Part shown: piece by piece, positions 12,499 to 64,000 of the stretch
How the letters are laid out: each line of letters begins with the position of its first letter
Numbering within the stretch: the first letter of the stretch is position 1
NCBI GenBank assembly: GCA_964291315.2
Contig: OZ219750.1
Span: 544,001-608,000, forward strand
Direction of reading: 5' to 3'
Source: Candidatus Poribacteria bacterium
GTDB lineage: Bacteria; Poribacteria; WGA-4E; WGA-3G
Length of the DNA stretch: 64,000 bases
Translations under genes and position numbers: made by a program
The notes under the pieces: generated by a model
Told to the model about the DNA's origin: nothing
Seen by the model: only the letters and a program-made list of their open reading frames with translations
The model's database searches: none

Positions 12499-12667
12499 AT
12501 CTTTTGTCCTGAAACTTTGAAACCGTTCAACCTGTTCAGCTTTCCACGGTGGTTTTCGGTTAATCTGGCCCCCCTCATACCTTATAAGAGGGTTTAACTG
12601 TTAAAGTTTGAGGTTGTTAAGCAGGCCCTTCTTATCATGAGTGATTCTTAAAAAACCTCAAAAAGAT

Positions 12668-12696
12668 TTGACATTATGGTCTGAATAAGGTATAAT
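12668..12696 (+). promoter_or_regulatory. Consensus sigma70 promoter of tRNA-Leu
   Basis: TTGACA-17 nt-TATAAT. Confidence 0.85.
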
Positions 12697-12708
12697 TAAT
12701 TATAAAAT

Positions 12709-12792
12709 GCCCCTGTGGTGGAATTTGGTATACACGGCAGGTTGAGGGCCTGTGCCTTAATTGGCATGCTGGTTCGAGTCCAGTCGGGGGCA
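12709..12792 (+). tRNA. tRNA-Leu(GAG)
   Basis: Acceptor GCCCCTG/CGGGGGC; anticodon arm GCAGG-TTGAGGG-CCTGT; long variable arm; GGTTCGAGTCC T-arm. Confidence 0.95.
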
Positions 12793-12808
12793 CTGTTTTT
12801 CCCTTCTT

Positions 12809-13981
12809 CTACTTCTCGGTCCCAACCTTTGGAACGCCTCCTAGTAACTCCTTGTATACCTGATATGTCCGGTCTGCGATTGTTTCCCATGTAAAGTTTT
12901 CGATACGGGCGAGTCCACGTGCAATCAGAGCATTGCGAAGGTCAGCGTCCTCTGCGATTTGACGTATCTTTTCTGCTAAGGCATCTGCATCTGCTTCAGG
13001 GAAAATAAGCCCCGCATTGCCAATCACCTGCGGAATTTCTCCAGAATCTGAACCGATGACTGGGACCTCACACGCCATTCCTTCTATAAGCACTCTCCCA
13101 AAAAATTCAACCCATCCTGCTGTTGTCCGAGACGGAAGGACTAACACGTCCATACAATTGATATAGAGGGCTACCTCTTCCGGAGGTACGGCATCTATCC
13201 ATATAACTTGTTCGGAAATACCAAGTATTTCAGCAGTCTTCTGAAAGTCGAGTTTATCCTCTCCTTGTCCGACGATGAGGAGTTTATAGGTGTGTGTACC
13301 CTCTTGATTTACAACAAGGCGGACAAATGCCTCAAGCAGCGTATCTATACCTTTCATTGCTAGTAGCCTGCCGACATAACCGATGACAAAACAGTCGTTG
13401 AACCCGAATGATTTCTGCAATTCAGTGACATCTATTTTGTAGAAGTGGCGGACATCAACACCGTTTGGAAAAGCTGTTTGTTGTCCAGTGTATCCTCGTT
13501 CAGTTAGGATTTTACCAGCGTTTGCGCTTAGTGGAAAGGCTCTATCAGTTTCCTGAAAAACACGTTGTTCGATCCACACGGGCAATATGCCAAATTTCTG
13601 TTTGATTGGTACGCTGAGTGAGGTGCGAAAGATAAAACGACTGTTCGGGCAATACTTCCGTTTTAAGCGAACTGTCTGTAGGGCGTTAAGACTCCATGCC
13701 TCCTCTTCAAGGTGAATAATGTCCGGTTGGAAGTCCTTAAAATGGGACTTCACACCACGTCGGTAGTAAAAACGGCTGCCGTAGCCGGAGAATCGGATTG
13801 GCCATGGAAATTCCTCACATGGTGTGTCGGGTTCGGGTTCAAAAACGATATTTTGGAAACTTTCGTACCAGCATGTAGGTGTAATAACACGTAGGGTGAC
13901 ATCCGGACGTGCGGCAATGATCGCGAACTTTCGCCGGTACGGCTTCATGATATAAGAATGAGAGAGAACTAAGACACGCAC
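12809..13981 (-). CDS. Glycosyltransferase family 4
   Basis: PNGVD, GYVGRL..KG, EFFGRVLIEGMAC..PVIGS..G motifs. Confidence 0.9.
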   Translation of the reverse strand: MRVLVLSHSYIMKPYRRKFAIIAARPDVTLRVITPTCWYESFQNIVFEPEPDTPCEEFPWPIRFSGYGSRFYYRRGVKSHFKDFQPDIIHLEEEAWSLNALQTVRLKRKYCPNSRFIFRTSLSVPIKQKFGILPVWIEQRVFQETDRAFPLSANAGKILTERGYTGQQTAFPNGVDVRHFYKIDVTELQKSFGFNDCFVIGYVGRLLAMKGIDTLLEAFVRLVVNQEGTHTYKLLIVGQGEDKLDFQKTAEILGISEQVIWIDAVPPEEVALYINCMDVLVLPSRTTAGWVEFFGRVLIEGMACEVPVIGSDSGEIPQVIGNAGLIFPEADADALAEKIRQIAEDADLRNALIARGLARIENFTWETIADRTYQVYKELLGGVPKVGTEK

Positions 13982-14024
13982 AACTATTTGTTATTTCGGC
14001 TTTGTTGAGAACATGCTGAGCCTA

Positions 14025-14447
14025 CTACTCTTCTTCTTCAAGGCTTCTTGTAGGTCGGACAACGATTGTTCTCTCCGCCTCGTTCCGTACGGTGGTGAAG
14101 GCAATTTCCCGGCTTGTATCTGGCTCCGCGGCTGCCTCTGTTTCAGTATCCGTGTCTGTTTCATTTGATGCAGCGAGAACATCCATCAAACCCTCAAGGC
14201 GTTCTCGGATATCCGTACGCTCTTGCGAAATAGCTAACCGTTCTAAATTAAGTTCCTCTTCAAGGTCACGGTTCCGCTGTTCGAGTTCTTGGATCTTAGC
14301 ATCGCGTTCTACCACGTTGCTGTTAAGCCTTGCAATATCAGCTTCTAGTTCGAATTTTTCTGCTCTTAATTCTTGAACGGTGGAAATTGCAAGTTCAACA
14401 TGCTCTTCCAAAAGTGATACAATACTTTTTTTCGACAATTCAGCCAT
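14025..14447 (-). CDS. Coiled-coil protein, ZapB-like
   Basis: LEEHVELAISTVQELRAE...IRERLEGLM pattern resembles ZapB; acidic tail. Confidence 0.55.
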   Translation of the reverse strand: MAELSKKSIVSLLEEHVELAISTVQELRAEKFELEADIARLNSNVVERDAKIQELEQRNRDLEEELNLERLAISQERTDIRERLEGLMDVLAASNETDTDTETEAAAEPDTSREIAFTTVRNEAERTIVVRPTRSLEEEE

Positions 14448-14475
14448 ATTTGGCCTCCTTTCAAGGTCCTATTGC

Positions 14476-15396
14476 TCATTTTACTATAGTTTCACAACTT
14501 TCGGTTGCGGGTTCGGTTCCTGTTTCAATAAGCGATTGGTGCTCAGTGTCTGCCCAGTCTGGGAATTTATGAACGTAGTGAAAGAGGTATTGCTGTGCAT
14601 ATCCGATGCCATCCCCGAAATAGTTATGCGCGAATTCACGTATTTCGCGATGTGTGGCGTGCCGACGCAGATAAAGGGTCTCGAAAATGCGTTTTATCCA
14701 GACATCAATGGGCAATGCTGTAAGATGCCCAAGCGAAAATAGACAGATACAATCTGCCACTTTTTCGCCAATACCTTTTTGCCGCATCAATTCCTGTTTT
14801 GCTTCAAGGTATGGCAATTGCTTCAGTGAAGTAAGGACAAGTTCCCCACTAATGACTGCACGCGCAATAGCCTGAAGATAGCTCGCTCGGTAACCGGTAC
14901 CGCATCCCAGGATCTCTTCTTCAGTGGTTGTCGCAAGGGCGTATGGACTCGGAAAACTATAATCGATATAAGTTTCCATTCTCAATTTTTCACCGTAACG
15001 CTCGGAGAGTCTACGGATAATCTTTCGGATTCGCGATATGTTGTTGTTTTGTGATAAAATAAAGGACGCTATCGTCTCCCAGAGTTCTTGGTTTAGAATA
15101 CGCATCCCCCAAAAGGTTTGAATCGTCCGGTGAATATAGGCATCCTTATCAACCTCGGCGAGGATTTTAGGCACATCTCGCGCCAGATCGAGATAGTGCC
15201 GGAGGTATGGCACGAAAGTCGTATCATCTTCGTTAGCGGAGCTTTCAATGTGCACAGTGGCCTCTTGTTGATAGATTTTGAGTATACGGCCCTCCACAAC
15301 ACCGTAATAGGCATCATTTATTCTGTTCCATCTAAATGATTGACCTGACTCTAATGTATATTTCAGACTAAAATTTGTTACATTCTGGATTTGCAT
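14476..15396 (-). CDS. 8-oxoguanine DNA glycosylase (OGG1-like, HhH-GPD)
   Basis: TLESGQSFRW N-domain; SFILSQNNNI; KGIGEKVADC..LF..PIDVW; GYAQQYLF. Confidence 0.88.
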   Translation of the reverse strand: MQIQNVTNFSLKYTLESGQSFRWNRINDAYYGVVEGRILKIYQQEATVHIESSANEDDTTFVPYLRHYLDLARDVPKILAEVDKDAYIHRTIQTFWGMRILNQELWETIASFILSQNNNISRIRKIIRRLSERYGEKLRMETYIDYSFPSPYALATTTEEEILGCGTGYRASYLQAIARAVISGELVLTSLKQLPYLEAKQELMRQKGIGEKVADCICLFSLGHLTALPIDVWIKRIFETLYLRRHATHREIREFAHNYFGDGIGYAQQYLFHYVHKFPDWADTEHQSLIETGTEPATESCETIVK

Positions 15397-15901
15397 CGTG
15401 ATGAGTTTGTATTGTCTATTTTATCAGGTTTTTACAAGAGTTCGCAATTGAAATCCTTCCTATTTCTTAATTTGCTATATTAACGTAAACGTCAAAAATC
15501 CTATCATTAAAAACAAAAAAAGTGTGTTTCTCATAAAACATCTCTCCTTATTACGATCAGATGCCTTTATGAGTGGTGCTCATCTATTTTCCAGCGAACT
15601 TGCCTGTTTTCAATTATACTTATCTTTATATTTGTTGTCAAGTGTTTTCGCACCCGTCTCCGCCGCCGAAAAACCGACAGTTATGCTCTTGAGTCCGGCG
15701 CGGCCGGGGAGACCGTTCAAATGGACGAGATGCTGAACGAGTCAGTTAATACATATCAACGCGAAATTGACGAAGGCTTAGGGATTTAACCTACCCTCAA
15801 TAGGACGTGCACAGCTGTATAACCGCTGCTGCTAGGTTCTGCCTTATATCCCAGTCTCCCTTGTATAATGGTTTCCTGTGAGTTTGTGGCGTTGTGCTCT
15901 T

Positions 15902-16311
15902 GTATCATAGACTGTCAGTCTGTGCTACGAGTTCTGTAAATTGCCAGTGTGATATTCGCTATTCTGTAGATAGAATATCAACGGTTCAGCTTTTTTTGAA
16001 AAAAAGTTGACAAAAACTTGGAAATAGGTATAATATCGTGTAGGCAGTTTATTAACGTTCCGTAGTAGATATATGTATCTGCCTGTTCATGGATATCAGC
16101 AATATGTCGTTTCATTTTCACTCAAGCCGATGTCAACTGACATCACTTTTTTAGTATCGTTAGTTTTCGTAGCCTGGTTTCCTATGAGTCTGTGCCTTGT
16201 AGCATAACCTGTCAGGTTGTGCATCCTTAGCTTGTGTTACGAAAGATGTGGCACAGGAAACCAACAGCCTATGCTACGGAAGATGTAGCACAGACCCACA
16301 GTCTCTGCCAC
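15902..16311. repeat. Cluster of GTAG-type REP-like palindromes
   Basis: Imperfect 27-30 nt palindromes at 15902-15928, 16199-16225, 16248-16277 and 16285-16311 (consensus GTAGCAYAGACTGNCAGTCTRTGCTAC). Confidence 0.6.
16007..16034 (+). promoter_or_regulatory. sigma70 promoter of the FGE-domain gene
   Basis: TTGACA-16 nt-TATAAT. Confidence 0.7.
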
Positions 16312-16397
16312 AGATAGATTTATCAAAAATCCGATCTCGCTCACGCTTGTGGTGGGAGATCATAATCTTAAAATATACAGCAAAGGAGTATTTTCTG

Positions 16398-18293
16398 GTG
16401 AAAACGTATTTGACAAGCCTGAAACTTATGGTTGCCGCACTCGCTAGAAGAACAGTATTCGTTCTCTCTACGCTTGCTGCGCTGATCCTTGCAATCGCCC
16501 CGTTCGCGGCGGCCGAATGGCAAGAGAACATGGTAACCAATAACACGCTCGAAGAGATCTATGTGATCAAGAGCACCTGGCAGGCAGCAGATGATAACAG
16601 AAACATCCCCGTAGGGTTCCGGACCCGCGGCTCATACCAGCTTCCTCCCGGGAAGTCCAAAGTGTTCTATTCCTGGGACACTAACAGTATCTATTTCCGT
16701 ATTTCAAACGCAGATGGTGCGATAAAAGCGAACAGCGGCACGACGGCTTTTGCGTTCTGGGCTCATCCGGATCGCTCCTTCCGTGTTGTCTCACAGACGC
16801 TCGATGCCTCTGTGACAACGGATCAGCTGCTTTACTCTGATCGTTCGCCGGATCAGTTGGCTCAATTGGAGGGATTTGTCAGCTATACGGGCGGCTCCGA
16901 AGTGGTTGTGACTCCGGCGTGGGTATTGCTAGATGGACAGCCGACTGCTCCGCCAAATAACGAGCTCGGAAACGATGGTGGAGACGATGGTGGTCCGCCC
17001 GGTGGCGATGTTGCGCCGCCTGCGTGGGTAGCGAGCGTGATAACAAATGCCACGGAAGCCGACCTATATGTAGTCTACGCGACGTGGAAGCTGGAGAACC
17101 TGAAAAAAGGGTATCCTGAAGGGTTTCGGACGCGCGGCACCTATCGCATTCGTCCTGGGAAGGGGCGCGTGTTTCATGCCTGGGCGGATAACGAGATTTA
17201 TTTCCGGATTGCCAATGCTGCGGGAGCGTTAAAACCGGAGGCGAGTTCGGAGACGTTTGGGTTCTGGCTGCATCCGAGTCGTTCGTTTCGCTTGGTCTCG
17301 GATCAGGTTTCTGCGACAGTAGAGCAGTCGGGTCTGAGTTACTCGGATCGTTCGGTGTCGAAATTGGAGCGTTCGGATGGTTTTATGGTATATGAGAGTG
17401 GTTCTGACGTGACGGTGACTGCTGATTGGGTGCCGGTAGCTCCTGTAGATGCTGGGAATGACGGTAACGGGAATGCCGGTGACGATGTCGCTCCAGTACC
17501 GCCTGAAACGCCAGTGCCTCCGGTAAACCCGTCAGCTCCTGCGGGCATGGTGTTGATCCCCGCTGGCACCTTCCAGATGGGCAGCAACAGTGAAATCGAT
17601 GAACGCCCTGTTCATTCTGTGTCTTTAGATGCATTTTATATAGATACACACGAGGTGACGAACGCAGAATACGCAGCGTTCCTCAATGCGAAGGGCAGAC
17701 ACGCCGATGCGGGTCAGATATGGTTCGATATCGGGGATGTTCATGCGCACATTGAGTTAGTAGACGGTATGTATAGTGTGACGTCGGGGTATGCGAATTA
17801 TCCTGTTGTTGAGGTGAGTTGGTATGGCGCGATGGCATATGCTGCGTGGGCAGGCAAGCGGTTACCCACCGAGGCCGAGTGGGAATATGCCGCGAGCGGT
17901 GGTTTGGCCGGCAAGAAATATCCGTGGGGCAACACAATAAACCCCAACCGTGCCAACTACGCTGGGCATTTTGGCGGTATAACGGTAGTAGGTAAATATC
18001 GAGCGAATGGTTATGGTCTGTATGATGTCGCGGGGAATGTCTGGGAGTGGTGTCTGGATGAGTATAGAGGTGATTTTTATACCAGCTCGGCTGCCCATAA
18101 TCCGTTGTCAGGTGCTCCGAACATTAAGTGGCTGTTAGATAACTATACAGGAGTTAATTCATACCGCGTCGTGCGTGGCGGCTCCTGGCTCAATATAGCA
18201 CCGTTCGTGCGGGTCGCCAACCGCAACCTCAATACGCCTACGATCACGATCTTCAACATCGGTTTTCGTTGTGTGAAGTCTGTATCCCCTTGA
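16398..18293 (+). CDS. Secreted protein: two ~135-aa repeats, Pro/Gly linkers and a C-terminal FGE-sulfatase (SUMF1/CLec-fold) domain
   Basis: GTG start after AAGGAG; signal peptide ending AAA; GMVLIPAGTFQMG, EVTN..Y, RLPTEAEWEYAA, NGYGLYD..GNVWEW, RGGSW, GFRC. Confidence 0.88.
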   Translation: MKTYLTSLKLMVAALARRTVFVLSTLAALILAIAPFAAAEWQENMVTNNTLEEIYVIKSTWQAADDNRNIPVGFRTRGSYQLPPGKSKVFYSWDTNSIYFRISNADGAIKANSGTTAFAFWAHPDRSFRVVSQTLDASVTTDQLLYSDRSPDQLAQLEGFVSYTGGSEVVVTPAWVLLDGQPTAPPNNELGNDGGDDGGPPGGDVAPPAWVASVITNATEADLYVVYATWKLENLKKGYPEGFRTRGTYRIRPGKGRVFHAWADNEIYFRIANAAGALKPEASSETFGFWLHPSRSFRLVSDQVSATVEQSGLSYSDRSVSKLERSDGFMVYESGSDVTVTADWVPVAPVDAGNDGNGNAGDDVAPVPPETPVPPVNPSAPAGMVLIPAGTFQMGSNSEIDERPVHSVSLDAFYIDTHEVTNAEYAAFLNAKGRHADAGQIWFDIGDVHAHIELVDGMYSVTSGYANYPVVEVSWYGAMAYAAWAGKRLPTEAEWEYAASGGLAGKKYPWGNTINPNRANYAGHFGGITVVGKYRANGYGLYDVAGNVWEWCLDEYRGDFYTSSAAHNPLSGAPNIKWLLDNYTGVNSYRVVRGGSWLNIAPFVRVANRNLNTPTITIFNIGFRCVKSVSP

Positions 18294-18420
18294 GGCTTTA
18301 CGCATTCACGAATTATGTTTCCGAATCTGTTACGCACACAGGTAGCGTTCAACGCTGTTATTCATTTCTCCTGGGGATTCGCAGTTTCCTGTCAGTTGAG
18401 ATGAGCTAAAGATACAATCC

Positions 18421-18476
18421 GGGGCGTGATGGCTAGTAGGGTTCTGCCGACAGCTCTCACGCCCCTTTTATTTTTT
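18421..18476 (+). terminator. Terminator-like hairpin after the FGE gene
   Basis: GGGGCGTGA/TCACGCCCC stem followed by TTTTATTTTTT; unusually large loop. Confidence 0.55.
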
Positions 18477-18752
18477 ATCGGCTCGCTGCCTGTGGGGAAC
18501 TCCAATTTCCGACGACACGATAGATGCAAAGCGTGCTATACTATGTGTCTATCGGCAGCAGTTATACACACAATTGAGCCGGTAGGTGGAGCGTTTCATA
18601 CGGAGTCGAGGTATGAGAATCACTCCGTCGCTAGGGGCCCGGGGCTTTATCAGGTAAGCTGTCGGTTTCATCAGGCCGCTAAACCTTGCATCGACGAGCC
18701 CACGCGGCTCTTCGTTTACGGGCAGCAAACACACACGCAATCCGCAGTCCGC
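18421..18752. ncRNA. Candidate structured non-coding element, family not recognised
   Basis: Dense nested stems and one long-range 10-nt pairing in an intergenic region without a credible ORF (see findings). Confidence 0.4.
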
Positions 18753-18822
18753 ATTATATAGTAGTATATTTGAAAAATTAGCAAGTTTTTATCATAATTA
18801 GGTATCCCGCCCCGATCCAAAT

Positions 18823-18851
18823 TTGACATTTATCCCGTTTATATGTATAAT
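18823..18851 (+). promoter_or_regulatory. Consensus sigma70 promoter
   Basis: TTGACA-17 nt-TATAAT. Confidence 0.8.
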
Positions 18852-18916
18852 ATTAACACGCTTCATGTGTGAGAGTCCATTAGACAGAAACCAAAGAGGA
18901 GATACTTTAGTAACAT

Positions 18917-20875
18917 ATGATTATCTTTCTACGTGAGAAATTTATTGCACAAATCTTTATGTGGGTAATTGCCATTGTGTTTTTAGTAGGAACCGTGTTC
19001 CTCTATAGCAACACGCAAGGCGGAGGCGAGGGCCCGGAAGGGGAAGTTGTTCTCAGGCTTGATGGGGCTGAAGTCAAACGGGGCGAGTTCGAAAACGCAG
19101 TCGCTAATGTTATGGAATCTCAGAGGCAGAATCAGAGATTCGGTGGTAATTCTGATAGAGAGCAGATGCAAAAATCGGTAATTGATCGTTGGGTACAACA
19201 GACGATTCTTGGAAGTGTAGATATCGCCGACGCGGACGTAAGACGTTACATTCGCGCCGATGCTGATCGGGTCCAGCAGTACAATCTTTCCGAACAATTC
19301 GGAGCTGCGGCCCTCTATACCGAGAATATCCGTCTACAACTCAGTTCTACTACACTCCTGGACAGTGTTCACTCTCTGGAATTGGTAACCGACACTGAAG
19401 CCGAGCAAGCATATCGACTTGAATCTGATAAAGCGAAAGTCAAGTTTATCGAATTTAAACATAGCGATTATACCTCAGCAGCCGTTGTTGATGATGCTGA
19501 AGCAGAAGTCTACTATGAGAAAAACGGGGAAAAGTATAAATCTGAGGAACAGGTAAACGTCAAGTTTATCAGGGTAAATCCTGCTGATTTTGTTTTAGAT
19601 TCAGATGTCGAGGCATATTATGAGGAAAATAAATCAGCATTTCTCACTCTTGAGGCTGTCAAGGCTCGCCATATTCTAAAGAAGTTTCCTAAAGAGGCAA
19701 CTGACGAACAGAAGGCGGAGGTTAAGGCGGCTGCGGAAGAATTGTTTAAAACCGTCAACGCGGAACTTGCAGCAGGGGCGGATTTCGCTGAACTCGCGAA
19801 AACACACTCGGAGGGCACTTCCGCAGCAATCGGCGGTGCATTAAAAGGGGCAAATCCAAAACTTCCTGCTGGGGACTATTTCGCACGCGGTGAAATGGTG
19901 AAACCCTTCGAAGATGCTGCATTTGATACATTGGCACCCGGAGAGGTGAGCGACTTGGTCGAAACGGAATTCGGATATCATATAATTAAATTGGAAGAGA
20001 AGAAGGCACCTGAAGTTCAACCTTTCGCTCAAGTTCAATATGAAATCCGACAGAAGTTGATTCAAGTTAGTGGTGTCGACGAGGCCAAAAGGATCGCTGA
20101 CGATCTGTTGTACGAAGTCGAGATTCAGGATTATGACGCTGCACTTACAAGCGAAGACTATAAGGTTCACGCACTTACTGTTTTAGAAACAGGGTTTTTC
20201 AGTCGTAACGTTACAACTATACCCCAAATTGGCGCAAGGTGGGGGTATGAGGGGTTAATCCAAGAAGTCTTTGATATGGAAGTCAATGTGATAAAGGTCA
20301 TTGAGGTGAAGGGGAGAACCGGTGAGGTAGAAGCCTACTTTGTTGCAACTGTCTTGGAAAAGAAACCAGCTGCTATTCCACCATTCGCTGAGGTAAAAAC
20401 GGAAGTCATTGAGGCGTTGAAGGCAGAGAAGGCGGAATCACTTGCCTTGGCAGATGCTCAAAGTCTACTCGATCAACGCGCCGATGCCAATTCTTTAGGG
20501 GAATTACTAAAAAAGTATGTCCCTCCTGAAGGCTTAACAGCGGATAGGCTCTCGGTACAGGAGAGTAACCTCTTCTCGCTCACCGCGAATGACAGCTATA
20601 TTTCTGGTATGGGGAATTCCACTCAAACGATGTTTGCGGCATTTCAGATGGAGCTAGATGAAATCGGGGGACCTTTCAAAGGCGATACTTCCGCGTACAT
20701 CGTTCAACTTGTTGAGCGGCAGGAACCGGATATAGAGGCGTTTGAGGTAGATCCTGCTGAAAAAACGCAACATCTTCAGACACTCATTCAGGCTAAGAAG
20801 CGAGAAACATTTTTGAATTGGTTTGCCTCACGGAAGAAAAGCAGCGAACTCTGGATTCACCCGGATTACCGTTAG
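18917..20875 (+). CDS. PpiD/SurA-like membrane-anchored peptidyl-prolyl isomerase chaperone
   Basis: N-terminal TM; SurA_N-like region; parvulin motifs VKARHIL, FAELAKTHS, MVKPFEDAAF, VETEFGYHIIK. Confidence 0.85.
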   Translation: MIIFLREKFIAQIFMWVIAIVFLVGTVFLYSNTQGGGEGPEGEVVLRLDGAEVKRGEFENAVANVMESQRQNQRFGGNSDREQMQKSVIDRWVQQTILGSVDIADADVRRYIRADADRVQQYNLSEQFGAAALYTENIRLQLSSTTLLDSVHSLELVTDTEAEQAYRLESDKAKVKFIEFKHSDYTSAAVVDDAEAEVYYEKNGEKYKSEEQVNVKFIRVNPADFVLDSDVEAYYEENKSAFLTLEAVKARHILKKFPKEATDEQKAEVKAAAEELFKTVNAELAAGADFAELAKTHSEGTSAAIGGALKGANPKLPAGDYFARGEMVKPFEDAAFDTLAPGEVSDLVETEFGYHIIKLEEKKAPEVQPFAQVQYEIRQKLIQVSGVDEAKRIADDLLYEVEIQDYDAALTSEDYKVHALTVLETGFFSRNVTTIPQIGARWGYEGLIQEVFDMEVNVIKVIEVKGRTGEVEAYFVATVLEKKPAAIPPFAEVKTEVIEALKAEKAESLALADAQSLLDQRADANSLGELLKKYVPPEGLTADRLSVQESNLFSLTANDSYISGMGNSTQTMFAAFQMELDEIGGPFKGDTSAYIVQLVERQEPDIEAFEVDPAEKTQHLQTLIQAKKRETFLNWFASRKKSSELWIHPDYR

Positions 20876-57652: not shown

Positions 57653-59263
57653 TTATGAAACTTTAAGATGAATTGTTTTTTCTTCGCTCTCGCTATAACC
57701 GATGCGGATCGCTTTTGCTCGTACGGTAGTTTCGCCTTCTGGTATACGTAGCGGACCGGTATATAACTGCCAGCGTGTATCATCCCCTTGCTCGGTTGTG
57801 TAGGCAATTGATGCACCTTGTGTGGAGCAGTGGAGTTGTAAAGTGAAAGGTGTTGACCATTCGTAACCCTCGTGTACTACTGTTGTACCGGGTTGTTCGG
57901 TGTTAATCGGAATAAAGATAGGCCCCGCTGTTTGCGGCTGCGTACGGTCAGGATACCATTGCTTGACCATCTGCTCTTCGGATATGTCTCCCATGTCCCC
58001 GAAATCTGTCTGCCACTGTGACAGTGCATCGCGCATTCGTTTCAGCACATCCTGATGTTCAGGGTCTGTCGCCAAATTGTTGAGTTCATATCTGTCTTTT
58101 TTGACATTGTAAAGTTCTTCAGCGGGACGTGGAGAGCGGAACATAACCGCCTCATCGCCCTCCAGTTTTCCCTCTGCATACAACCGCCACATTTCCTGCA
58201 TAATCGGATGCCGATTACGATATGGAATCCAGAGCAGATATGGTTTTTCAGGGTAGTAATTTCTAATGTATTTATACTTTTTGTCACGTATAGCACGTAC
58301 CATATCGTAAGATTCATCGTATCGGTCGCGCGTCGCGAAGATATATTCGCGTTCAACCTTTTCTGGCCCAAGGAAGGGGTGCCCTTGTAGATGTTCAGGT
58401 GACTTTACACCGCAGAGCGATAGAACTGTTGGACCGAGATCAATCAGACTGACTAATTGTTCGCTGACACTACCAGCGGTGAGCGCATCAGGCCACCTTA
58501 CAATCAGTGGTATACGGATACCGGCATCATACGGCCACCGTTTTCCGCGAGGCAGTCCTTCACCGTGATCGCTCCAAAGAAAAACGATAGTATTCTCTAC
58601 GAGGCCATCTTTTTCTAGTTGATCGAGGAGTTCTCCGACACGGGTATCAGCAGTTGCAATGTTATCATATTGGCGCGCCAATGCTTGCCGCGCTTTCGGT
58701 GTGTTGGGCAGATAGGGTGGTAATTGCACGGCATCAGGGTTTGTGGTTGTAGTCAAAGGACGGTCCCCGCGTTCCCACATACCGCTTTCGTGTGTAACCG
58801 TTGGGTTGAAAATTGAGAAAAATGGTTGACTTTCTTCGCGATTTCGCCAGTGTGCAGTGTCGCTACACTCATCCCATGCTGTGATAGGGGACGTAAACTG
58901 ATAGTCGGTTTTGCTATTGTTCGTACAGTAATAACCTGCTCCTCTGAGGTATTCGGTGAAGACCTTGACGTATGGAGGCGGGAGTGCTGAATATGGGGTT
59001 GGCAGTTTCGGCGTTTCCGCGTTCGTGTGTGTCGTTCGCATGTGGTGTGTACCAATTGAGGTCTGATACATACCGGTAATGATTGCAGAACGGCTCGGTG
59101 CACAGACACCAGCAGTCGAAAATGCATTCGGAAACCGGCACCCACCAGTGGCAAGCCGATCAATATTGGGCGTACGGGCAAGCGTGTCCCCGTAACAACC
59201 AAAACGAGGCGTTGTATCCTCTAAAGAAATCCAGAGAATATTTGGGCGGTCTGGCGTGTTCAT
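57653..59263 (-). CDS. Sulfatase with C-terminal FN3-associated/chitobiase-like domain
   Basis: CAPSRSAIITG, SDHG, RGKRW; C-terminal T.GASIAYT..W.LY..P. Confidence 0.9.
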   Translation of the reverse strand: MNTPDRPNILWISLEDTTPRFGCYGDTLARTPNIDRLATGGCRFPNAFSTAGVCAPSRSAIITGMYQTSIGTHHMRTTHTNAETPKLPTPYSALPPPYVKVFTEYLRGAGYYCTNNSKTDYQFTSPITAWDECSDTAHWRNREESQPFFSIFNPTVTHESGMWERGDRPLTTTTNPDAVQLPPYLPNTPKARQALARQYDNIATADTRVGELLDQLEKDGLVENTIVFLWSDHGEGLPRGKRWPYDAGIRIPLIVRWPDALTAGSVSEQLVSLIDLGPTVLSLCGVKSPEHLQGHPFLGPEKVEREYIFATRDRYDESYDMVRAIRDKKYKYIRNYYPEKPYLLWIPYRNRHPIMQEMWRLYAEGKLEGDEAVMFRSPRPAEELYNVKKDRYELNNLATDPEHQDVLKRMRDALSQWQTDFGDMGDISEEQMVKQWYPDRTQPQTAGPIFIPINTEQPGTTVVHEGYEWSTPFTLQLHCSTQGASIAYTTEQGDDTRWQLYTGPLRIPEGETTVRAKAIRIGYSESEEKTIHLKVS

Positions 59264-59451
59264 TGTAACTCCAATTTTTTATTAATGATCGTACTCCAAG
59301 CAGCGATTTAAGTCAAGATATATCTCGGAATTATCCAGGGCCATTCAATTCCGATGCGGACACATTCCACAAGTTTAGGAGATAAAATTTAAAAATTTGA
59401 TAAGTATTTATAGATAAACTGTAATTTCAACAGCAGTAAAAATTTAAAAAC

Positions 59452-59480
59452 TTGACGAATGTTTACGGATGAAGTACAAT
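59452..59480 (+). promoter_or_regulatory. sigma70 promoter for the peptide-ABC operon
   Basis: TTGACG-17 nt-TACAAT. Confidence 0.65.
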
Positions 59481-59657
59481 TTCCACAGGAATCTGAAAAA
59501 GAGATAAAAAATTTGACATTTTATATTTCGTTGATGAGCTAAATATTTATCAAGCTCGCGTTATATAGAATAGAGATGGATTGCCAAGGCTTCAAAACAC
59601 CTTTCAGATTTTGCCTTCCATACAGCACAGCAATCCGCGAAAACAGAGAAGTTTAAA

Positions 59658-59822
59658 ATGTTGAAAGCGTACTCCAAGAAAGTTCAAGCCAAGAAGGCAT
59701 ACGCCCCACCTGAATTTTTCCCATTGGGTTGTGCCACGTTTCTCGCCCACGGTTCTTGTGATGTTGGGTGTAACTATGAAAAAAGTGGGAATCAGAAAAC
59801 AATCTTTAGTTCCAATCGGTAA
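59658..59822 (+). CDS. Candidate RiPP precursor peptide (54 aa) with lasso-type leader, absent from the ORF track
   Basis: MLKAYSKKVQAKKAYAPPEFFPLGCATFLAHGSCDVGCNYEKSGNQKTIFSSNR*; ends 19 nt before the ABC exporter. Confidence 0.6.
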   Translation: MLKAYSKKVQAKKAYAPPEFFPLGCATFLAHGSCDVGCNYEKSGNQKTIFSSNR

Positions 59823-59841
59823 TGTGTAGGGGGACAAAAAT

Positions 59842-61617
59842 TTGAACGCGTCCAAAAAGAAACTGATTTTGGGGAGTGGCAGCATAGCGATCCGCTTGTT
59901 GGGTTATCTCAAACCCTATTGGGGTATCGCCCTTTTATGTGTGCTCCTCCAGATCGTTTACCGGGCTACCTACTTGGTCAACCCATGGATAGAAGGGCAG
60001 TTGCTGGACCGGGTCTTTGGAGCGAAAGATGCCGATTTTCTACCTGTCCTTGTGAGTTTGTGGATGGGTATCGCCCTTGCGACCTATCTCACGAATCTGG
60101 TTTTGGCGTATCTTCTGAGAAACGTCACTTGTCAAACCCGCCGAGATATGCAACTGCAGGTTTACCAACATTTGCGGTTCCTCCCGTGCCGTTTCTACGA
60201 TAATCACACAACGGGGCAGATCATGGCTAACATCAGTTCCGATACAGAGTCGGCTGCGGGAGGGATTTTGTCAAGTGGCTGGATGCTCCTCTCGGGGATT
60301 GAATTTGTCATTACTCTGACGTTTGTGTTCGCGGTGAATCCATGGTTGGGGCTTTTTAGTATTCCGTTTGCCTTTGCCGTTGTTGGGCTCCCCTTTCTAT
60401 TTCGAAGGCCTGTGCAAAACGCTTCGAAGCAGGTCTTGCAGGAGAAAGAGAGCATTTCGTCAAGGCTTCAAGAAGGGATTGCGGGCTCGAGAGAGATAAA
60501 AGCCCTCGGTCATGAGCTGCGAGACATGGGTCGCATTCGGCGTTCAATAGACACCCTCATTCGTGCTGAACTCTATCAAACCTTAATCGGGGGCCTGACG
60601 ACCCTTGGCCCCCTTGCTTCTTGGTTGGGCCATCCGCTTTTCTTTCTCATCGGTGGGAAAATGGTGCTGGCCGGACACATCAGCGTCGGTTTTTTGTGGA
60701 TGGCAAACCGTTATTTACATCTGGTCACCCTGCCGCTACATCGGGTCGCCCAGGATGAATATCCAAAGCTTCTCCGAACCGGGGAGGGGGCAAAACGGGT
60801 GTTCGCTTTCCTCGAAAATCGAGCCGAACCCAACGATAGTATTGAGGCTGCTGACTTGCAAGGAAGTGTCCGGTTTGAAGGTGTCCATTTCAACTACAAT
60901 GGAACTACAGAAGTCCTTCAGAACGTCGGTTTTGAGGTGCAGCCCGGTCAAACCGCGGCACTCGTGGGCCCCAGCGGTGCAGGGAAAAGCACGATTCTCA
61001 ACCTGCTGCCGCGTTTCTACGAACCCACGCAAGGACACATCTTGGTTGATGAACACGATATCACGACACTTAAATTGAGAACCTTGAGATCGCAGATCGG
61101 CACGGTGTTTCAAGATCCTTATCTCTTTTCAGGTTCGATTGAAGAAAATATCCGAATGGGTGCTCGACACCCGGAAAACGTGAAAAGGGAGGACATCATA
61201 GCCGCTGCCACCGCTGCCACCGCCCACGGCTTTATCACGCAGCTCAAAGAGGGCTACGCCACAGAGATAGGCGAGCGGGGCATCAAACTCTCCGGGGGTG
61301 AGCGGCAACGGATTGCCATCGCTCGTTCCCTGATTCGGAATCCAAAGATTCTCCTTCTCGATGAAGCCACTTCCGCACTCGACTCGGAGACAGAGCGGGG
61401 TGTCACGGAAGCGTTAGAACGACTGATGAAGGGCAGGACCTCGTTTGTAATTGCACACCGATTGTCTACTGTGCTGAGCGCGGATGTGATTCTTGCCGTG
61501 GAAAATGGGAAAATTGTGGAACAAGGCACACATCAGGAGTTGATAGCCCGCGGCGGGCTCTATGCCCGGTTGTATCGCTTACAATTTGCGACCCCCGGCG
61601 ATCCAAACGATCAATAA
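59842..61617 (+). CDS. ABC exporter, fused permease and ATPase (type IV, MsbA-like)
   Basis: TM domain; GPSGAGKS, LSGGERQR, LLLDEATSALD, IAHRLST; no C39 peptidase domain. Confidence 0.92.
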   Translation: MNASKKKLILGSGSIAIRLLGYLKPYWGIALLCVLLQIVYRATYLVNPWIEGQLLDRVFGAKDADFLPVLVSLWMGIALATYLTNLVLAYLLRNVTCQTRRDMQLQVYQHLRFLPCRFYDNHTTGQIMANISSDTESAAGGILSSGWMLLSGIEFVITLTFVFAVNPWLGLFSIPFAFAVVGLPFLFRRPVQNASKQVLQEKESISSRLQEGIAGSREIKALGHELRDMGRIRRSIDTLIRAELYQTLIGGLTTLGPLASWLGHPLFFLIGGKMVLAGHISVGFLWMANRYLHLVTLPLHRVAQDEYPKLLRTGEGAKRVFAFLENRAEPNDSIEAADLQGSVRFEGVHFNYNGTTEVLQNVGFEVQPGQTAALVGPSGAGKSTILNLLPRFYEPTQGHILVDEHDITTLKLRTLRSQIGTVFQDPYLFSGSIEENIRMGARHPENVKREDIIAAATAATAHGFITQLKEGYATEIGERGIKLSGGERQRIAIARSLIRNPKILLLDEATSALDSETERGVTEALERLMKGRTSFVIAHRLSTVLSADVILAVENGKIVEQGTHQELIARGGLYARLYRLQFATPGDPNDQ

Positions 61618-61693
61618 CTGGTTCATCCACTAGTTCTTCGTTCTAGGATTCTCAAGAAAACGAAAAACTCTCTTCACCTTTTGGAGACATCCG

Positions 61694-62995
61694 ATGCATT
61701 TCACCGAAGCTTTCTTCATGAGCTGCACCGCAATCCTGGCAAATAAGATGCGTTCATTGCTGACGACGCTTGGCATTCTCATCGGGGTTGCCTCGGTGCT
61801 GGCAATGATAGCGATCGGTGATGGTGCGAAGGAAATTGTGCGACAAGACGCACAGAAATTGGGCGGTGCTAATCAGTTTATAATGTTCCGTTCGGGATAT
61901 GAATGGAAAGGGAATAAATGGGTGAAAGTCCGTCATAACGAATACCTCGAATATGGCGATGTCTTGGCGATTGCAGCGGAATGTCCATCGGTGAGTGCTG
62001 TCACCCCGAGAATTTGGGACTCGGGCGGTGTGCTAATTCAAGCCGCAGGTGGCACTGAAACCCGCGCAGGATATAATGGCGTAGATGCTACCTATCAAAC
62101 TGTCATGGATTGGGATCTCCAAGAAGGACGTTTTATCACCGCTGAAGATGTGGAGAACGCAACGAAAGTCTGTGTCCTCGGGGATGAAGTCTCGACGGCT
62201 CTCTTTGGAGAGAACTCCGCTTTGGGACAGGAAATCAAAATCGTAAGAGATGTCGGCCACTACGATCGATATGGTCGAAAAGCGGGGCGGCGTGCCGCAG
62301 AACGTTTCACGGTTGTCGGGACCTTTGTGCCGAGAGGCAGGACTCTTCGGTTCGGATCGAGTTTCGACACGCTTGTCTTCCTCCCGATATCTACCGTGCA
62401 AAAACGCTTCACAGGTAATGATCGGATTCAGCGCGTCTTAGTCTTCGTGCATAGGGTTGAGGATATGCCAAAGGCGATTGAGGAAGTAAAAGCGGTTATC
62501 CGCAAACGACACAGAAACCAAGATAGCTTCGTCCATATCTTTGAGATGCGAAAAGGTATAGCACAGCTAGAAAAAATAAGCAAAGTGATCAAGATTGCCC
62601 TCGGCAGCATCGCCGGTTTTTCGCTGCTTGTGGGTGGTATTGGTATTATGAATATGATGTTAGTTGCTGTAAACGAACGCACGCGCGAAATCGGGCTTCG
62701 GAAGGCAGTTGGTGCCAAACGCCGGGACATTCTGCTGCAGTTTCTCATAGAAGCAATGATGATGTGTGGTGTAGGAGGCGTGCTGGGTATTGGGTTCGGG
62801 ATTTTCGCAGGTGAAGGCATGGCACACCTTGCTGTCAACATCGTCAAAATCGTCCTCGAATGGCCGGCGGTTCTCTCGACAGAATGGATATTGATTTCGG
62901 TCACCTTTTCTGCGGTCATCGGTATCTCGTTTGGGCTGTATCCTGCGATAAAAGCCGCATCGCTCTCCCCAATGGAGGCACTACGTGCGGATTAA
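61694..62995 (+). CDS. MacB/FtsX-family ABC permease
   Basis: RSLLTTLGILIGVASV; VGGIGIMN.M..V.ERTREIGLRKAVGA; GLYPA.KAA.L.P.EALR. Confidence 0.92.
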   Translation: MHFTEAFFMSCTAILANKMRSLLTTLGILIGVASVLAMIAIGDGAKEIVRQDAQKLGGANQFIMFRSGYEWKGNKWVKVRHNEYLEYGDVLAIAAECPSVSAVTPRIWDSGGVLIQAAGGTETRAGYNGVDATYQTVMDWDLQEGRFITAEDVENATKVCVLGDEVSTALFGENSALGQEIKIVRDVGHYDRYGRKAGRRAAERFTVVGTFVPRGRTLRFGSSFDTLVFLPISTVQKRFTGNDRIQRVLVFVHRVEDMPKAIEEVKAVIRKRHRNQDSFVHIFEMRKGIAQLEKISKVIKIALGSIAGFSLLVGGIGIMNMMLVAVNERTREIGLRKAVGAKRRDILLQFLIEAMMMCGVGGVLGIGFGIFAGEGMAHLAVNIVKIVLEWPAVLSTEWILISVTFSAVIGISFGLYPAIKAASLSPMEALRAD

Positions 62996-63391
62996 AACAA
63001 GGCACTTGATCCTCACGACACCTTCAAAACACACCGCCAGAAAGATCAGCGGATTCTGCCAAACCTCGCTGATTAGACATCAATGAATCAACACCAATAT
63101 TCGTTCTGTCTGCTCTGTGTTTATTTTGGGCAAAATGGGAATATGAGCGAGGCACCCTAAAAAAATCCGAAAATGCGCTTCGAGGCCAGATATTGCCAAG
63201 TTACCCTTTTTATATAAAAATAAACAGAAAAACGGATACGGATTGCTTTAAAATTCAGAACCGTTCAATTGTCGAGGTGTCCTTTACGTGTGGGTATGTC
63301 GCTCCACGGTTTCATCAGAGATAGCGTGCCTTTTCACGCCACCTCTGATAGGATATACCTCATTATACAAACGCATATTCTGAGGTGCTCC

Positions 63392-63559
63392 ATGAAAAAG
63401 AAAACGGGCCACTTCCTTGGCATATTAGCAGAGTCCCCAGATTTTCGAGATGTCCGCGGCAAACGCTATCCGTTCCCCGCTATTTTCGCCTTCGTCATTA
63501 TTGTACCAAAAAAGCTCCGTGTGAGCTCTGTGAGTTCGGCCGTTAAAATTCAATTCTGA
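63392..63559 (+). pseudogene. N-terminal remnant of an ISAs1-family transposase
   Basis: FLGILAESPDFRDVRGKRYPFPAIFAFVII resembles the DDE_Tnp_1-associated 'DPR..RGxRY.L..+L' start; truncated after ~55 aa. Confidence 0.6.
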
Positions 63560-63725
63560 TACTAAATGATTTTCGGAAAAGTATTGCCGTCGTGTCAGGA
63601 TTGTGATAGAATAATGATATTCTGCAACATGGGCTTTCAAGTTGTTTCCTTAAGTTTAAAATCAAATTCTTTCTGCCTGACCTCGTACTGATATTCTACA
63701 GTTACACAATTGAGGTTATAGCATT

Positions 63726-64000
63726 ATGAGCAATTCTCATTTACGTTATCTACACGTTGCGCAAGAGGTTCTGAGACAGATTGAGGCTACACAAGCTGAA
63801 GCAATTACACAAGTGTCGGAGATGTGTGCCGAGACAATAGCAGCAGCAGGTCTCGTCTATTTGTTCGGTTCCGGACATTCCCGTATGGCTGTTGAAGAAA
63901 TTTTCCCACGCTATGGAAGTTTCCCTGGTTTTTTCCCTATCGTCGAGTTAGCTGTCACATTTCACAATCAAGTTGTCGGCTGCAACGGCCAACGTCAGGC
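63726..64000 (+). CDS. SIS-domain (sugar isomerase) protein, partial at the window edge
   Basis: MSNSHLRYL...GLVYLFGSGHSRMAVEEIFPRYG. Confidence 0.8.
   Translation, partial: MSNSHLRYLHVAQEVLRQIEATQAEAITQVSEMCAETIAAAGLVYLFGSGHSRMAVEEIFPRYGSFPGFFPIVELAVTFHNQVVGCNGQRQ

Follow-up and report, generated by a model that had tools for sequence, protein, structure and literature searches.

In this study we show that a 54-aa open reading frame (ORF) of a Candidatus Poribacteria genome belongs to a family of lasso peptide precursors, that this genome has lost the enzymes of lasso maturation, that the constraint on the leader of the ORF is relaxed and that the ABC exporter beside it is under purifying selection. 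The window, i.e. the whole stretch of 64,000 nucleotides that was analysed, very probably holds a decaying lasso cluster: a genuine but orphaned A gene, which is a relic, and an exporter as its retained part. In this reading a decaying precursor remains beside a kept exporter because this genome of a sponge symbiont lost the enzymes for knotting.

The precursor ORF and its surroundings

The first-pass annotation had described a 54-aa ORF upstream of an ABC exporter and a MacB permease, and we find this ORF with the same sequence and coordinates (59658-59822, + strand; ATG start, 55 codons). The features of the region are as follows.

59377..59486, + strand: 55-nt tandem duplication, copies 73% identical, containing the promoter-like site 59452-59480
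59520..59570, + strand: one copy of a genome-wide short repeat (core 59549-59565), between promoter-like site and precursor ORF
59658..59750, + strand: leader (M1-H31) of the precursor ORF, with Y-17, P-14, G-8 and G+1, F at -12 and A at -2; 5/18 positions off the family consensus
59751..59822, + strand: predicted core peptide (G32-R54, 23 aa) and stop codon, with the family's conserved Glu-Lys at core positions 10-11, two Cys and aromatic F19
59842..61617, + strand: ABC exporter, 591 aa, fused ABC_membrane and ABC_tran, TTG start; 75% aa identity to the cluster D orthologue of genome G022
61618..61693, + strand: 76-bp spacer, standing where relatives have B1 (followed by GT-GT-C-B2 in G022)
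61694..62995, + strand: MacB-type permease, 433 aa, MacB_PCD and FtsX; one of 9 paralogues in its own genome

The promoter proposed earlier, TTGACG-17-TACAAT, is present at 59452-59480 and agrees with 10 of 12 consensus positions; it is a candidate by consensus match only, and the 4.6-kb region scanned holds 12 promoter-like sites, compared with 4.7 +/- 2.3 for shuffled sequence. The 17-nt core of the short repeat occurs 9 times exactly in the genome, 29 times with at most one mismatch and 66 times with at most two, and its other copies often lie upstream of genes. No known riboswitch or leader RNA is recognised at 59200-63800, since an Rfam scan of this interval (E <= 1) gave no match. The Shine-Dalgarno sequence of the precursor is weakened.

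Lasso leader spacing and the deviations from it had also been described correctly: Y15 is at -17, P18 at -14, F20 at -12, G24 at -8, A30 at -2 and G32 at +1, and the only acidic residues of the core are D4 and E10, counted from G1. Core positions 7, 8 and 9 of the window precursor thus hold no acidic residue that could close a ring, and its residue at -2 is Ala, where the other 21 family members have Thr. Pfam and NCBIfam gave no meaningful family match to the peptide; two sub-threshold matches at 18 bits, which would have made it a cytidine deaminase, were disregarded.

A family of lasso precursors with one intact cluster

Searching 5.8 billion proteins revealed 15 protein relatives of the 54-aa ORF with E values from 2e-28 to 3e-12. 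These relatives show that the ORF did not arise by chance alone, and so do its homologues, whose leader DNA varies chiefly in the third position of codons. Among genomes G022, G174 and G106 the leader differences are mainly synonymous, with 9.7 synonymous to 2.3 nonsynonymous changes between G022 and G174. The family, which was previously unannotated, has 22 known members, found in 5 of 176 Poribacteria genomes and among metagenome proteins; querying 1.84 billion representatives added P0016 and P0017. The count of 22 includes P0002 and the frameshifted copy P0004, both of which are absent from the family alignment. P0018 (226 aa, four short PELFPLG-like repeats) is not comparable and was left out of the alignment. 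Scanning metagenome contigs with this alignment gave 16 pattern matches, of which none was confirmed, and scanning genome contigs gave two loci only, both also reached by the genome search. Precursors and cyclases may share contigs in the large protein database, to judge only by equal 'longest contig' values (8749, 10618 and 21854). Text searches of the literature returned no Poribacteria lasso precursor; related sequences might be among the precursors listed in the supplements to PMC10368454 and PMC11912497.

The consensus of the 22 precursor sequences, MLKAYFKK...YAKPELYPLGRATFLTH/G (the slash preceding core position 1), is an exact lasso leader with Y-17, P-14, L-12, G-8, T-2 and G1. The 18-residue leader block is identical to the consensus in 10 of the 22 and has one or two residues changed in a further 9. 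L-12 and T-2 are invariant in all 21 members besides the window copy, P-14 is found in 20 of these 21 (G106 has S), and core position 1 is Gly in 22/22, the window precursor included. The conserved Glu that is the candidate ring residue stands at core position 9 in 8/22 sequences, that of G022 among them, and at position 10 in 14/22, for example in P0010, and 7 of the 14 Glu10 members have no other acidic residue at core positions 7-10. The claim of a lasso-type precursor heading an exporter operon is supported, and the lasso leader is matched more closely by the family consensus than by the window copy.

In genome G022, a congener, the orthologue of the window ORF (55% identity, E 2.4e-9) lies in a complete lasso cluster with the gene order A, ABC exporter (D), PqqD/B1, glycosyltransferase, glycosyltransferase, C, B2. 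A look at relatives for B and C genes near the exporter, which the first-pass annotation had proposed, hence finds B1, both glycosyltransferases, C and B2 after the exporter. Their domains match PqqD (56.5 bits), Glycos_transf_1 (twice), Asn_synthase (102 bits, 558 aa) and Transglut_core3. The glycosyltransferases are of GT4 type and have 541 and 594 aa. B2 passes the NCBIfam model lasso_biosyn_B2 (42 bits, cut-off 33); C, a hypothetical protein in NCBI, matches NF033561, the model for lasso macrolactam cyclases, from end to end at 94 bits, under the cut-off of 300. A close cyclase is found in 1 of the 176 phylum genomes, compared with 5 that carry the precursor.

Decay in relatives and a retained exporter

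The relatives form a graded series of decay, from the full cluster through a B1 pseudogene and precursor with exporter to the exporter alone. G106 has an A gene with P-14S, an intact ABC gene, a B1 disrupted by a frameshift and by stops, and a MacB with an internal deletion; in G174 and G011 the A gene is followed by an ABC gene cut to residues 10-41 and then by MacB. MacB comes after B1 in G106, and in G022 the ~14 kb that follow B2 contain no MacB. The surroundings of the module are unrelated from genome to genome.

The window leader itself seems to be drifting. Between the window's genome (G000) and G106 the leader block differs by 3 synonymous and 8 nonsynonymous changes, a pattern that looks near neutral and that differs from the G022-G174 pair (Fisher p = 0.012, for pairs that are not independent and have 11-12 substitutions). 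On the other hand, F for L at -12 is a conservative change, and PMC10368454 describes rare natural or predicted lasso precursors that have Ile, Val or Ala in place of Thr at -2. The ORF also still has its ATG, its stop and most motif residues, which speaks against a mere relic; because it is open, a residual or new function is possible.

Such a function need not involve maturation enzymes. The ORF could be an upstream ORF whose translation controls or is coupled to the expression of the exporter, or ABC/MacB could secrete its product as an unmodified linear peptide. The ABC gene starts only 19 nt after the stop of the ORF, with no terminator-like site in this interval, and the ORF is open in four genomes without the enzymes (G000, G174, G011 and G106). 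However, 55 codons are a small target that could stay open by chance, the substitutions in the window leader look near neutral, and one family member, P0004, is a frameshifted copy. Furthermore, 9 of 9 further exporter loci examined are without an intact precursor while their exporter is still under purifying selection, so that the exporter does not need the ORF. We regard an enzyme-independent role as unlikely.

The exporter has an ABC_membrane domain (PF00664, 95 bits) followed by ABC_tran (PF00005, 124 bits), and its best relatives of solved structure are ABCB1, Sav1866 and MsbA, which makes it by sequence a generic half-transporter, ABCB-like and of type IV fold. Permeases of MacB type (type VII) work with a MacB-type ATPase, and no such ATPase, separate or fused, adjoins the MacB permease. 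Exporter orthologues (at least 69% identity) occur in 23 of 176 phylum genomes, mostly without the precursor. Their dN/dS of 0.11-0.18 indicates purifying selection, also in pairs where both genomes are without the enzymes; the values are pairwise and cannot date the enzyme loss. Strain-variant contigs have 1-nt deletions at 60786 in the ABC gene (run X3) and at 62124 in the MacB gene (runs X3 and X4). If real, these mean that some strains are losing the exporter genes too; contig errors would explain them equally well.

At 6 of the 9 further exporter loci the frame just before the ribosome-binding site of the exporter reads an aromatic-His-Asn/Ser-x-Asn/Asp-x tail, and in 5 of these 6, G166 being the exception, this frame ends in a stop. 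The tails resemble the C-termini of the family with the leader part unrecognisable, which is suggestive only of precursor remnants.

No maturation enzymes found in the genome

No B, C or radical-SAM gene adjoins the precursor ORF in the window, as reported at first pass, and none was found in the whole genome (95.2% complete in 4 contigs, so that ~5% may be unassembled), where we looked for, and did not find, a B1 of cluster type, B2 and C. PF00733 gave three partial PP-loop matches only (22-29 bits, frames of 252-426 aa) and PF13471 one match at 20.5 bits, under the cut-off. The C, B2 and B1 proteins of G022 each had 0 matches in this genome, and tblastn with the HTH, B1, C and B2 of G022 gave nothing at 1e-3. 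The 76-bp spacer has a short and weak alignment to G106 that begins at the ABC stop and takes in roughly eight codons at the start of B1; because of this alignment it may, tentatively, be the scar of a B1 deletion. Contigs from all four sequencing runs examined, which belong to one study, span the junction between the ABC and MacB genes.

Could the precursor still be used, matured in trans by B1, B2 and C encoded elsewhere in the genome, in an unassembled part or on an unbinned element? The intact ORF, which keeps Y-17, P-14, G-8 and G1, would allow this, as would a genome that is not closed, and one PqqD-domain protein is indeed encoded (G000:C1:192329-192514). However, this sole PqqD protein belongs to an unrelated FtsX/ABC-ATPase locus without a cyclase, Pfam models, G022 proteins and tblastn all failed to detect the partners, the otherwise invariant L-12 and T-2 are lost from the leader, and the same cluster is openly decaying in relatives. 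Maturation in trans is therefore highly improbable. More improbable still is the reading that the ORF encodes the precursor of a graspetide, a radical-SAM product or some other RRE-dependent RiPP. A core rich in Ser, Asp, Glu and Lys and a conserved Glu at core position 10 here, beyond the usual 7-9, would suit it, but it is unsupported because the enzymes beside the orthologue (B1, Asn-synthase-like C and transglutaminase-like B2) are the defining lasso set, with no ATP-grasp, YcaO or radical-SAM gene in the G022 cluster. Of the three explanations offered by the first-pass annotation, the decaying cluster is thus upheld, while maturation in trans and a different RRE-dependent class are not.

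Discussion

In the decaying-cluster reading the intact form of the module is like that of G022, with A, D, B1 (RRE/PqqD), two glycosyltransferases, the macrolactam cyclase C and the leader peptidase B2. By analogy with established lasso systems, B1 would bind the leader through Y-17, P-14 and L-12, B2 would cut it after T-2/H-1, and C would join Gly1 to the conserved Glu. B1, both glycosyltransferases, C and B2 have been lost from the window's genome, by deletions whose order is a matter of inference. The 54-aa peptide, if made at all, could be neither cleaved nor cyclised, and its leader would be free to drift, as the changes at L-12 and T-2, the near-neutral ratio of nonsynonymous to synonymous changes and the weaker Shine-Dalgarno sequence suggest. 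The exporter is the part under selection, intact here and conserved in many Poribacteria without precursor and enzymes.

Split B1/B2 lasso clusters with a D gene, as far as described in PMC10368454 and PMC6784204, have leaders with Thr at -2 and with YxxPxL from -17 to -12. In the consensus of the family Y-17, P-14, L-12, T-2 and G1 stand in the same register, and G022 has B1, B2, C and the ABC exporter; the window copy differs in F-12, A-2 and a genome without B1, B2 and C. Natural lasso rings have 7-9 residues according to PMC8498205, compared with the family's Glu at 9 (8/22) or 10 (14/22). Glycosylated lasso peptides are represented in PMC11912497 by the davasins, with the glycosyltransferase IgtG, and by pseudomycoidin, and PMC9426513 describes lasso gene-cluster families of sponge microbiomes with glycosyl, sulfo and nucleotidyl transferases. 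G022 resembles the davasin and pseudomycoidin systems in having glycosyltransferases inside a lasso cluster; it differs from the IgtG system, as described there, in having two GT4-like enzymes (541 and 594 aa) instead of a single IgtG, a distinction by description, and in the window no glycosyltransferases are left.

What, then, might the exporter be kept for? It would have another job, most plausibly protection against, or export of, the lasso peptides of neighbouring producers. Orphan bacteriocin immunity genes are a known kind of system, and McjD of microcin J25 is a self-immunity ABC exporter of a lasso cluster. The exporter studied here likewise lies beside a precursor, and most of the 23 genomes with an orthologue lack precursor or enzymes; its role in immunity is putative. 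By sequence it is of a generic ABCB/MsbA/Sav1866 type, and McjD is absent among the best 60 solved-structure matches listed. It is conceivable, though we consider it doubtful, that all these observations belong together: G022-like strains would make glycosylated lasso peptides with the ring closed on the conserved Glu, the exporter would confer community-level immunity inside the sponge, and the window would capture a one-time producer in transition to a strain that is resistant and no longer produces.

In conclusion, the window ORF is by descent a real lasso precursor, yet it does not belong in a tally of natural products that can be made, and there is no need to seek a trans-acting maturase for it. 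The family to which it belongs is an undescribed one of sponge-specific Poribacteria, and the only intact cluster seen, that of G022, carries two glycosyltransferases. A ring closed on Glu10 would, if true, be the first natural lasso ring of 10 residues. An exporter that stays under purifying selection after the loss of biosynthesis would offer a case, open to experiment, in which a community of uncultured symbionts keeps an orphan gene for resistance or immunity.

The small ORF and its family

The first-pass annotation had described a hidden 54-aa ORF ahead of an ABC exporter and a MacB permease, and our analysis recovered all three, the ORF with the sequence given there:

59452-59480: promoter-like site TTGACG-17-TACAAT, 10/12 consensus positions matched
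59658-59822 (+): precursor ORF, 54 codons, ATG start
19 nt past the precursor stop, up to 61617 (+): ABC exporter gene, TTG start, 591 aa, ABC_membrane and ABC_tran domains
61694-62995 (+): MacB-type permease gene, 433 aa, MacB_PCD and FtsX, 76 nt after the exporter

Upstream neighbours in the window are two sulfatases and a lactonase, and a SIS-domain gene lies downstream. Of the promoter proposed earlier only the site itself stands: because the 4.6 kb scanned hold 12 such sites (4.7 +/- 2.3 in shuffles) and this one falls within the second of two tandemly duplicated 55-nt units, we regard it as a consensus match, nothing more. The duplication (59377-59486) has copies that are 73% identical, each with a TTGA-type -35-like hexamer; near 59505 lies another AAAAATTTGACA stretch of this kind, the third. 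No Rfam family matched in 59200-63800. A repeat of about 45 nt at 59520-59570 recurs in at least 27 further places in the window's own genome (G000). It combines a hairpin-like 5' part with a conserved 17-nt core, present in 9 exact copies, 29 with at most one mismatch and 66 with at most two. The repeat is often located 20-60 nt ahead of a start codon with its ribosome-binding site, and may therefore act as a terminator/promoter cassette or represent a small mobile repeat.

A peptide search of relatives returned clear same-genus homologues of the ORF in two other Poribacteria genomes, G022 (E 2.4e-9) and G011 (E 1.4e-7). Both are small ORFs immediately 5' of the exporter gene or an exporter remnant. 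In DNA alignment the ORF is conserved and the non-coding sequence 5' of it is not, and leader differences fall mostly at third codon positions. A profile search of 5.8 billion proteins gave 15 further members (55-61 aa, E 2e-28 to 3e-12) without name or Pfam domain, and two more, both divergent, came from 1.84 billion cluster representatives. Within the phylum the family occurs in 5 of 176 genomes (G000, G022, G011, G174 and G106); literature text searches found no description of it.

The family consensus reads MLKAYFKK...KKAYAKPELYPLGRATFLTH up to an invariant Gly (core position 1), then a variable stretch, a conserved EKDSNGQE-like motif, an aromatic residue and an Asn/Ser/Gly-rich end. Counted back from Gly1, it carries Y-17, P-14, L-12, G-8 and T-2, the lasso-type spacing noticed at first in the window copy. 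In lasso precursors YxxPxL occupies -17 to -12, and the penultimate residue of the leader is a conserved Thr (PMC10368454, PMC6784204). The predicted core of the window copy covers 59751-59819. The conserved Glu stands at core position 9 in 8 of the 22 precursors and at position 10 in the other 14, and seven members have no other acidic residue at core 7-10. This implies either a ring of ten residues or a cut displaced by one residue towards the C-terminus from the site expected under the T-2/G1 rule. According to the relevant part of PMC8498205, natural lasso rings have 7-9 residues, and ten are reached only in an engineered variant of fusilassin. The longest contig of the family protein P0010, which has Glu10 only, matches that of a cyclase homologue in size, a hint that such members may be functional.

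An intact cluster in G022

In G022 the exporter beside the precursor is 75% identical to the window's ABC protein and is followed by genes for a PqqD protein, two Glycos_transf_1 proteins, an Asn_synthase and a Transglut_core3 protein:

L026 (G022:C42:92000-111900) 11238-19902 and L029 2567-3004: predicted lasso cluster; HTH regulator, precursor (A), ABC exporter, B1, glycosyltransferase (GT), GT, C, B2
L026 about 12047-12229: precursor
B1 (RRE/PqqD): PqqD-domain protein, 102 aa
GT: two Glycos_transf_1 proteins, 541 and 594 aa, GT4-like
C (macrolactam cyclase): Asn_synthase-family protein, 558 aa
B2 (leader peptidase): Transglut_core3 protein, 145 aa

The Transglut_core3 protein passes the NCBIfam lasso B2 model (42 bits, cut-off 33). 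The Asn-synthase homologue, a hypothetical protein in its NCBI entry, aligns along its full length to the lasso macrolactam-cyclase model at 94 bits, below the cut-off of 300, and the best matches of the PqqD protein are lasso PqqD chaperone models, under cut-off. Judged by gene content, the G022 locus is the defining lasso gene set plus two tailoring glycosyltransferases, and this neighbourhood settles the lasso class of the family. The earlier reading of the window ORF as a lasso-type precursor thus holds by descent, as its orthologue heads this gene set; the window copy itself is an orphan.

Lasso clusters with split B1/B2 and a D-type ABC exporter are well known. Glycosylated lasso peptides are rare, with only pseudomycoidin and davasins listed in the relevant part of PMC11912497, and the G022 cluster, with its two transferases, is a candidate for a new one. 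Lasso gene-cluster families with added group transferases are noted in sponge microbiomes, in the part concerned without detail (PMC9426513).

Loss of the enzymes and probable drift of the precursor

The lack of maturation enzymes, first noted around the window ORF, extends to all of G000 (95.2% complete, 4 contigs, the window on a 650-kb contig): neither models nor G022 proteins nor tblastn recovered B1, B2 or C. The Asn_synthase model gave just three partial matches (22-29 bits, in 252-426-aa frames) and Transglut_core3 one match under cut-off (20.5 bits). The G022 cyclase, B2 and B1 proteins had no match, tblastn of the G022 regulator, B1, C and B2 returned none at E 1e-3, and the two G022 glycosyltransferases found generic relatives only, at most 28% identical. 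The sole PqqD-domain protein of G000 (154 aa) belongs to a gene row at G000:C1:190000-200000 (L028 7383-15981, minus strand), together with a 1223-aa FtsX/MacB_PCD protein, an ABC ATPase and two proteins of 661 and 345 aa that match no Pfam family. No cyclase is near it, and the locus may be a different peptide-handling system. Contigs of 4/4 runs (one study) bridge the exporter-MacB junction at 61617-61694, with no loose end listed, so the direct junction is not an assembly artefact.

Across the 18-residue leader block (-17 to +1) the window copy differs from the consensus at five positions (K-15P, L-12F, Y-11F, R-7C, T-2A), compared with 0-2 differences in 19 of the 21 other sequences. The two divergent members have six, yet keep Y-17, P-14, L-12, G-8, T-2 and G1. 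The deviations at -12 and -2 that had been pointed out are present, and among the 22 sequences unique to the window copy. Without constraint, roughly three nonsynonymous changes are expected per synonymous one. In the 18 leader codons the synonymous to nonsynonymous ratio is 3:8 for the window against G106, which of the precursor-keeping genomes is nearest to it by exporter. It is 9.7:2.3 for G022-G174 and 7:3 for G022-G106; the contrast with G022-G174 (Fisher p = 0.012) is drawn from small counts and from pairs that share branches. Where G022 and G174 have AGGAG before the ATG, the window has a weaker purine-rich stretch. Because of the leader changes, this ratio and the weaker stretch, we read the precursor as under relaxed selection since the enzymes were lost. 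However, F for L at -12 is conservative, the ORF is still open, and Ala at -2 occurs among predicted natural precursors (PMC10368454).

Decay across relatives

That the cluster is decaying, one of the possibilities raised at first, fits both the lost enzymes and drifting leader of G000 and the broken B1, exporter and MacB genes of its relatives. In G106, from another genus, the precursor carries Ser instead of Pro at -14 and its N-terminus is altered; the exporter is intact, B1 is interrupted by a frameshift and stops, and the MacB gene lacks its middle. G174 and G011 have an intact-looking precursor and an exporter cut down to residues 10-41, followed by MacB, which is frameshifted in G011; the G011-type precursor recurs, likewise frameshifted, as the family protein P0004. 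Among the five precursor-bearing genomes only G022 has B2. The G022 cyclase was matched in 8/176 genomes at E <= 1e-10, closely in G022 only; in the other seven the identity was 22-32% and the alignments covered parts of the query. Other Poribacteria have Asn-synthase-like ORFs (532-644 aa, 25-32% identity to the G022 cyclase; G162:C460:15726-17285, G062:C395:3347-4219), which may be AsnB-type enzymes unrelated to it or may serve as cyclases in further lasso families. That biosynthetic genes are lost is in itself ordinary.

Homology between loci ends at module edges (window 59691-61627 and 61730-62995), hence the module sits in different surroundings in each genome. MacB directly follows B1 in G106, and in G022 the roughly 14 kb downstream of B2 contain none. 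Such permeases are multi-copy (MacB_PCD/FtsX at E <= 1e-20: 9 in G000, 12-15 in four relatives, often in tandem arrays). Between the 76-bp spacer and G106 there is a weak alignment that runs from the stop codon of the exporter through about the first eight codons of B1; the spacer may be a deletion scar. A 404-aa ORF adjoins the G174 precursor locus (L031 7511-8725, minus strand) and also lies on the G011 contig, cut at the contig end; our guess from its sequence is that it might be transposase-like.

The exporter is kept without the pathway

Exporter orthologues (69-86% identity) occur in 23/176 genomes of the phylum, compared with five for the precursor and one for a close cyclase. None of nine further exporter loci examined has an intact precursor (L048-L056: G169, G104, G166, G031, G150, G165, G160, G172, G014; 78-86% identity). 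Six of them have a conserved upstream segment in common; directly 5' of the ribosome-binding site, one of its frames translates to a tail resembling the family C-terminus, closed by a stop in five and lacking one in G166. A MacB gene lies upstream of the exporter in at least three of the nine and an ECF-sigma-like ORF of 450-472 aa downstream in six; G104 carries a tandem pair of exporters, and behind each of the two lies an N-terminal B1 remnant of ~40 codons. Pairwise exporter dN/dS is 0.14-0.18 among window, G022 and G106 and 0.11-0.17 among genomes without the enzymes (window versus G169: 0.157). These low values, enzyme-less genomes included, indicate that selection maintains the exporter even where the pathway is missing. 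In a rough three-taxon split the window branch has 0.22 and the other two 0.13 and 0.15. Three exporter orthologues have an internal stop. Strain-variant contigs carry 1-nt deletions at 60786 (run X3, ABC gene) and 62124 (runs X3 and X4, MacB gene), which could be real breaks (frameshifts in related strains) or contig errors, and a 3-nt insertion behind 61595 (X3, X4). By sequence the exporter is a generic ABCB/MsbA/Sav1866-type half-transporter.

By analogy with established lasso systems, leader binding in a complete pathway would fall to B1, cleavage behind T-2/H-1 to B2 and the bonding of Gly1 with the conserved Glu to C. Sugars would be attached by the transferases, and the ABC protein would serve both to export the product and to protect the producing cell. 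In G000 only the first and last parts of this pathway, precursor and exporter, are left. If the ORF were co-transcribed with the exporter and translated, its product would be linear and probably degraded. The exporter, possibly together with the MacB permease, is probably retained for a separate role. The simplest guess is that it might serve as a defence against lasso peptides from G022-like neighbours in the same sponge. In conclusion, the window element is, as far as sequence comparison goes, an orphaned, drifting precursor next to a retained exporter, a lasso precursor by descent. The intact relative G022 and the genomes that keep only the exporter would be more promising leads than the window element itself.
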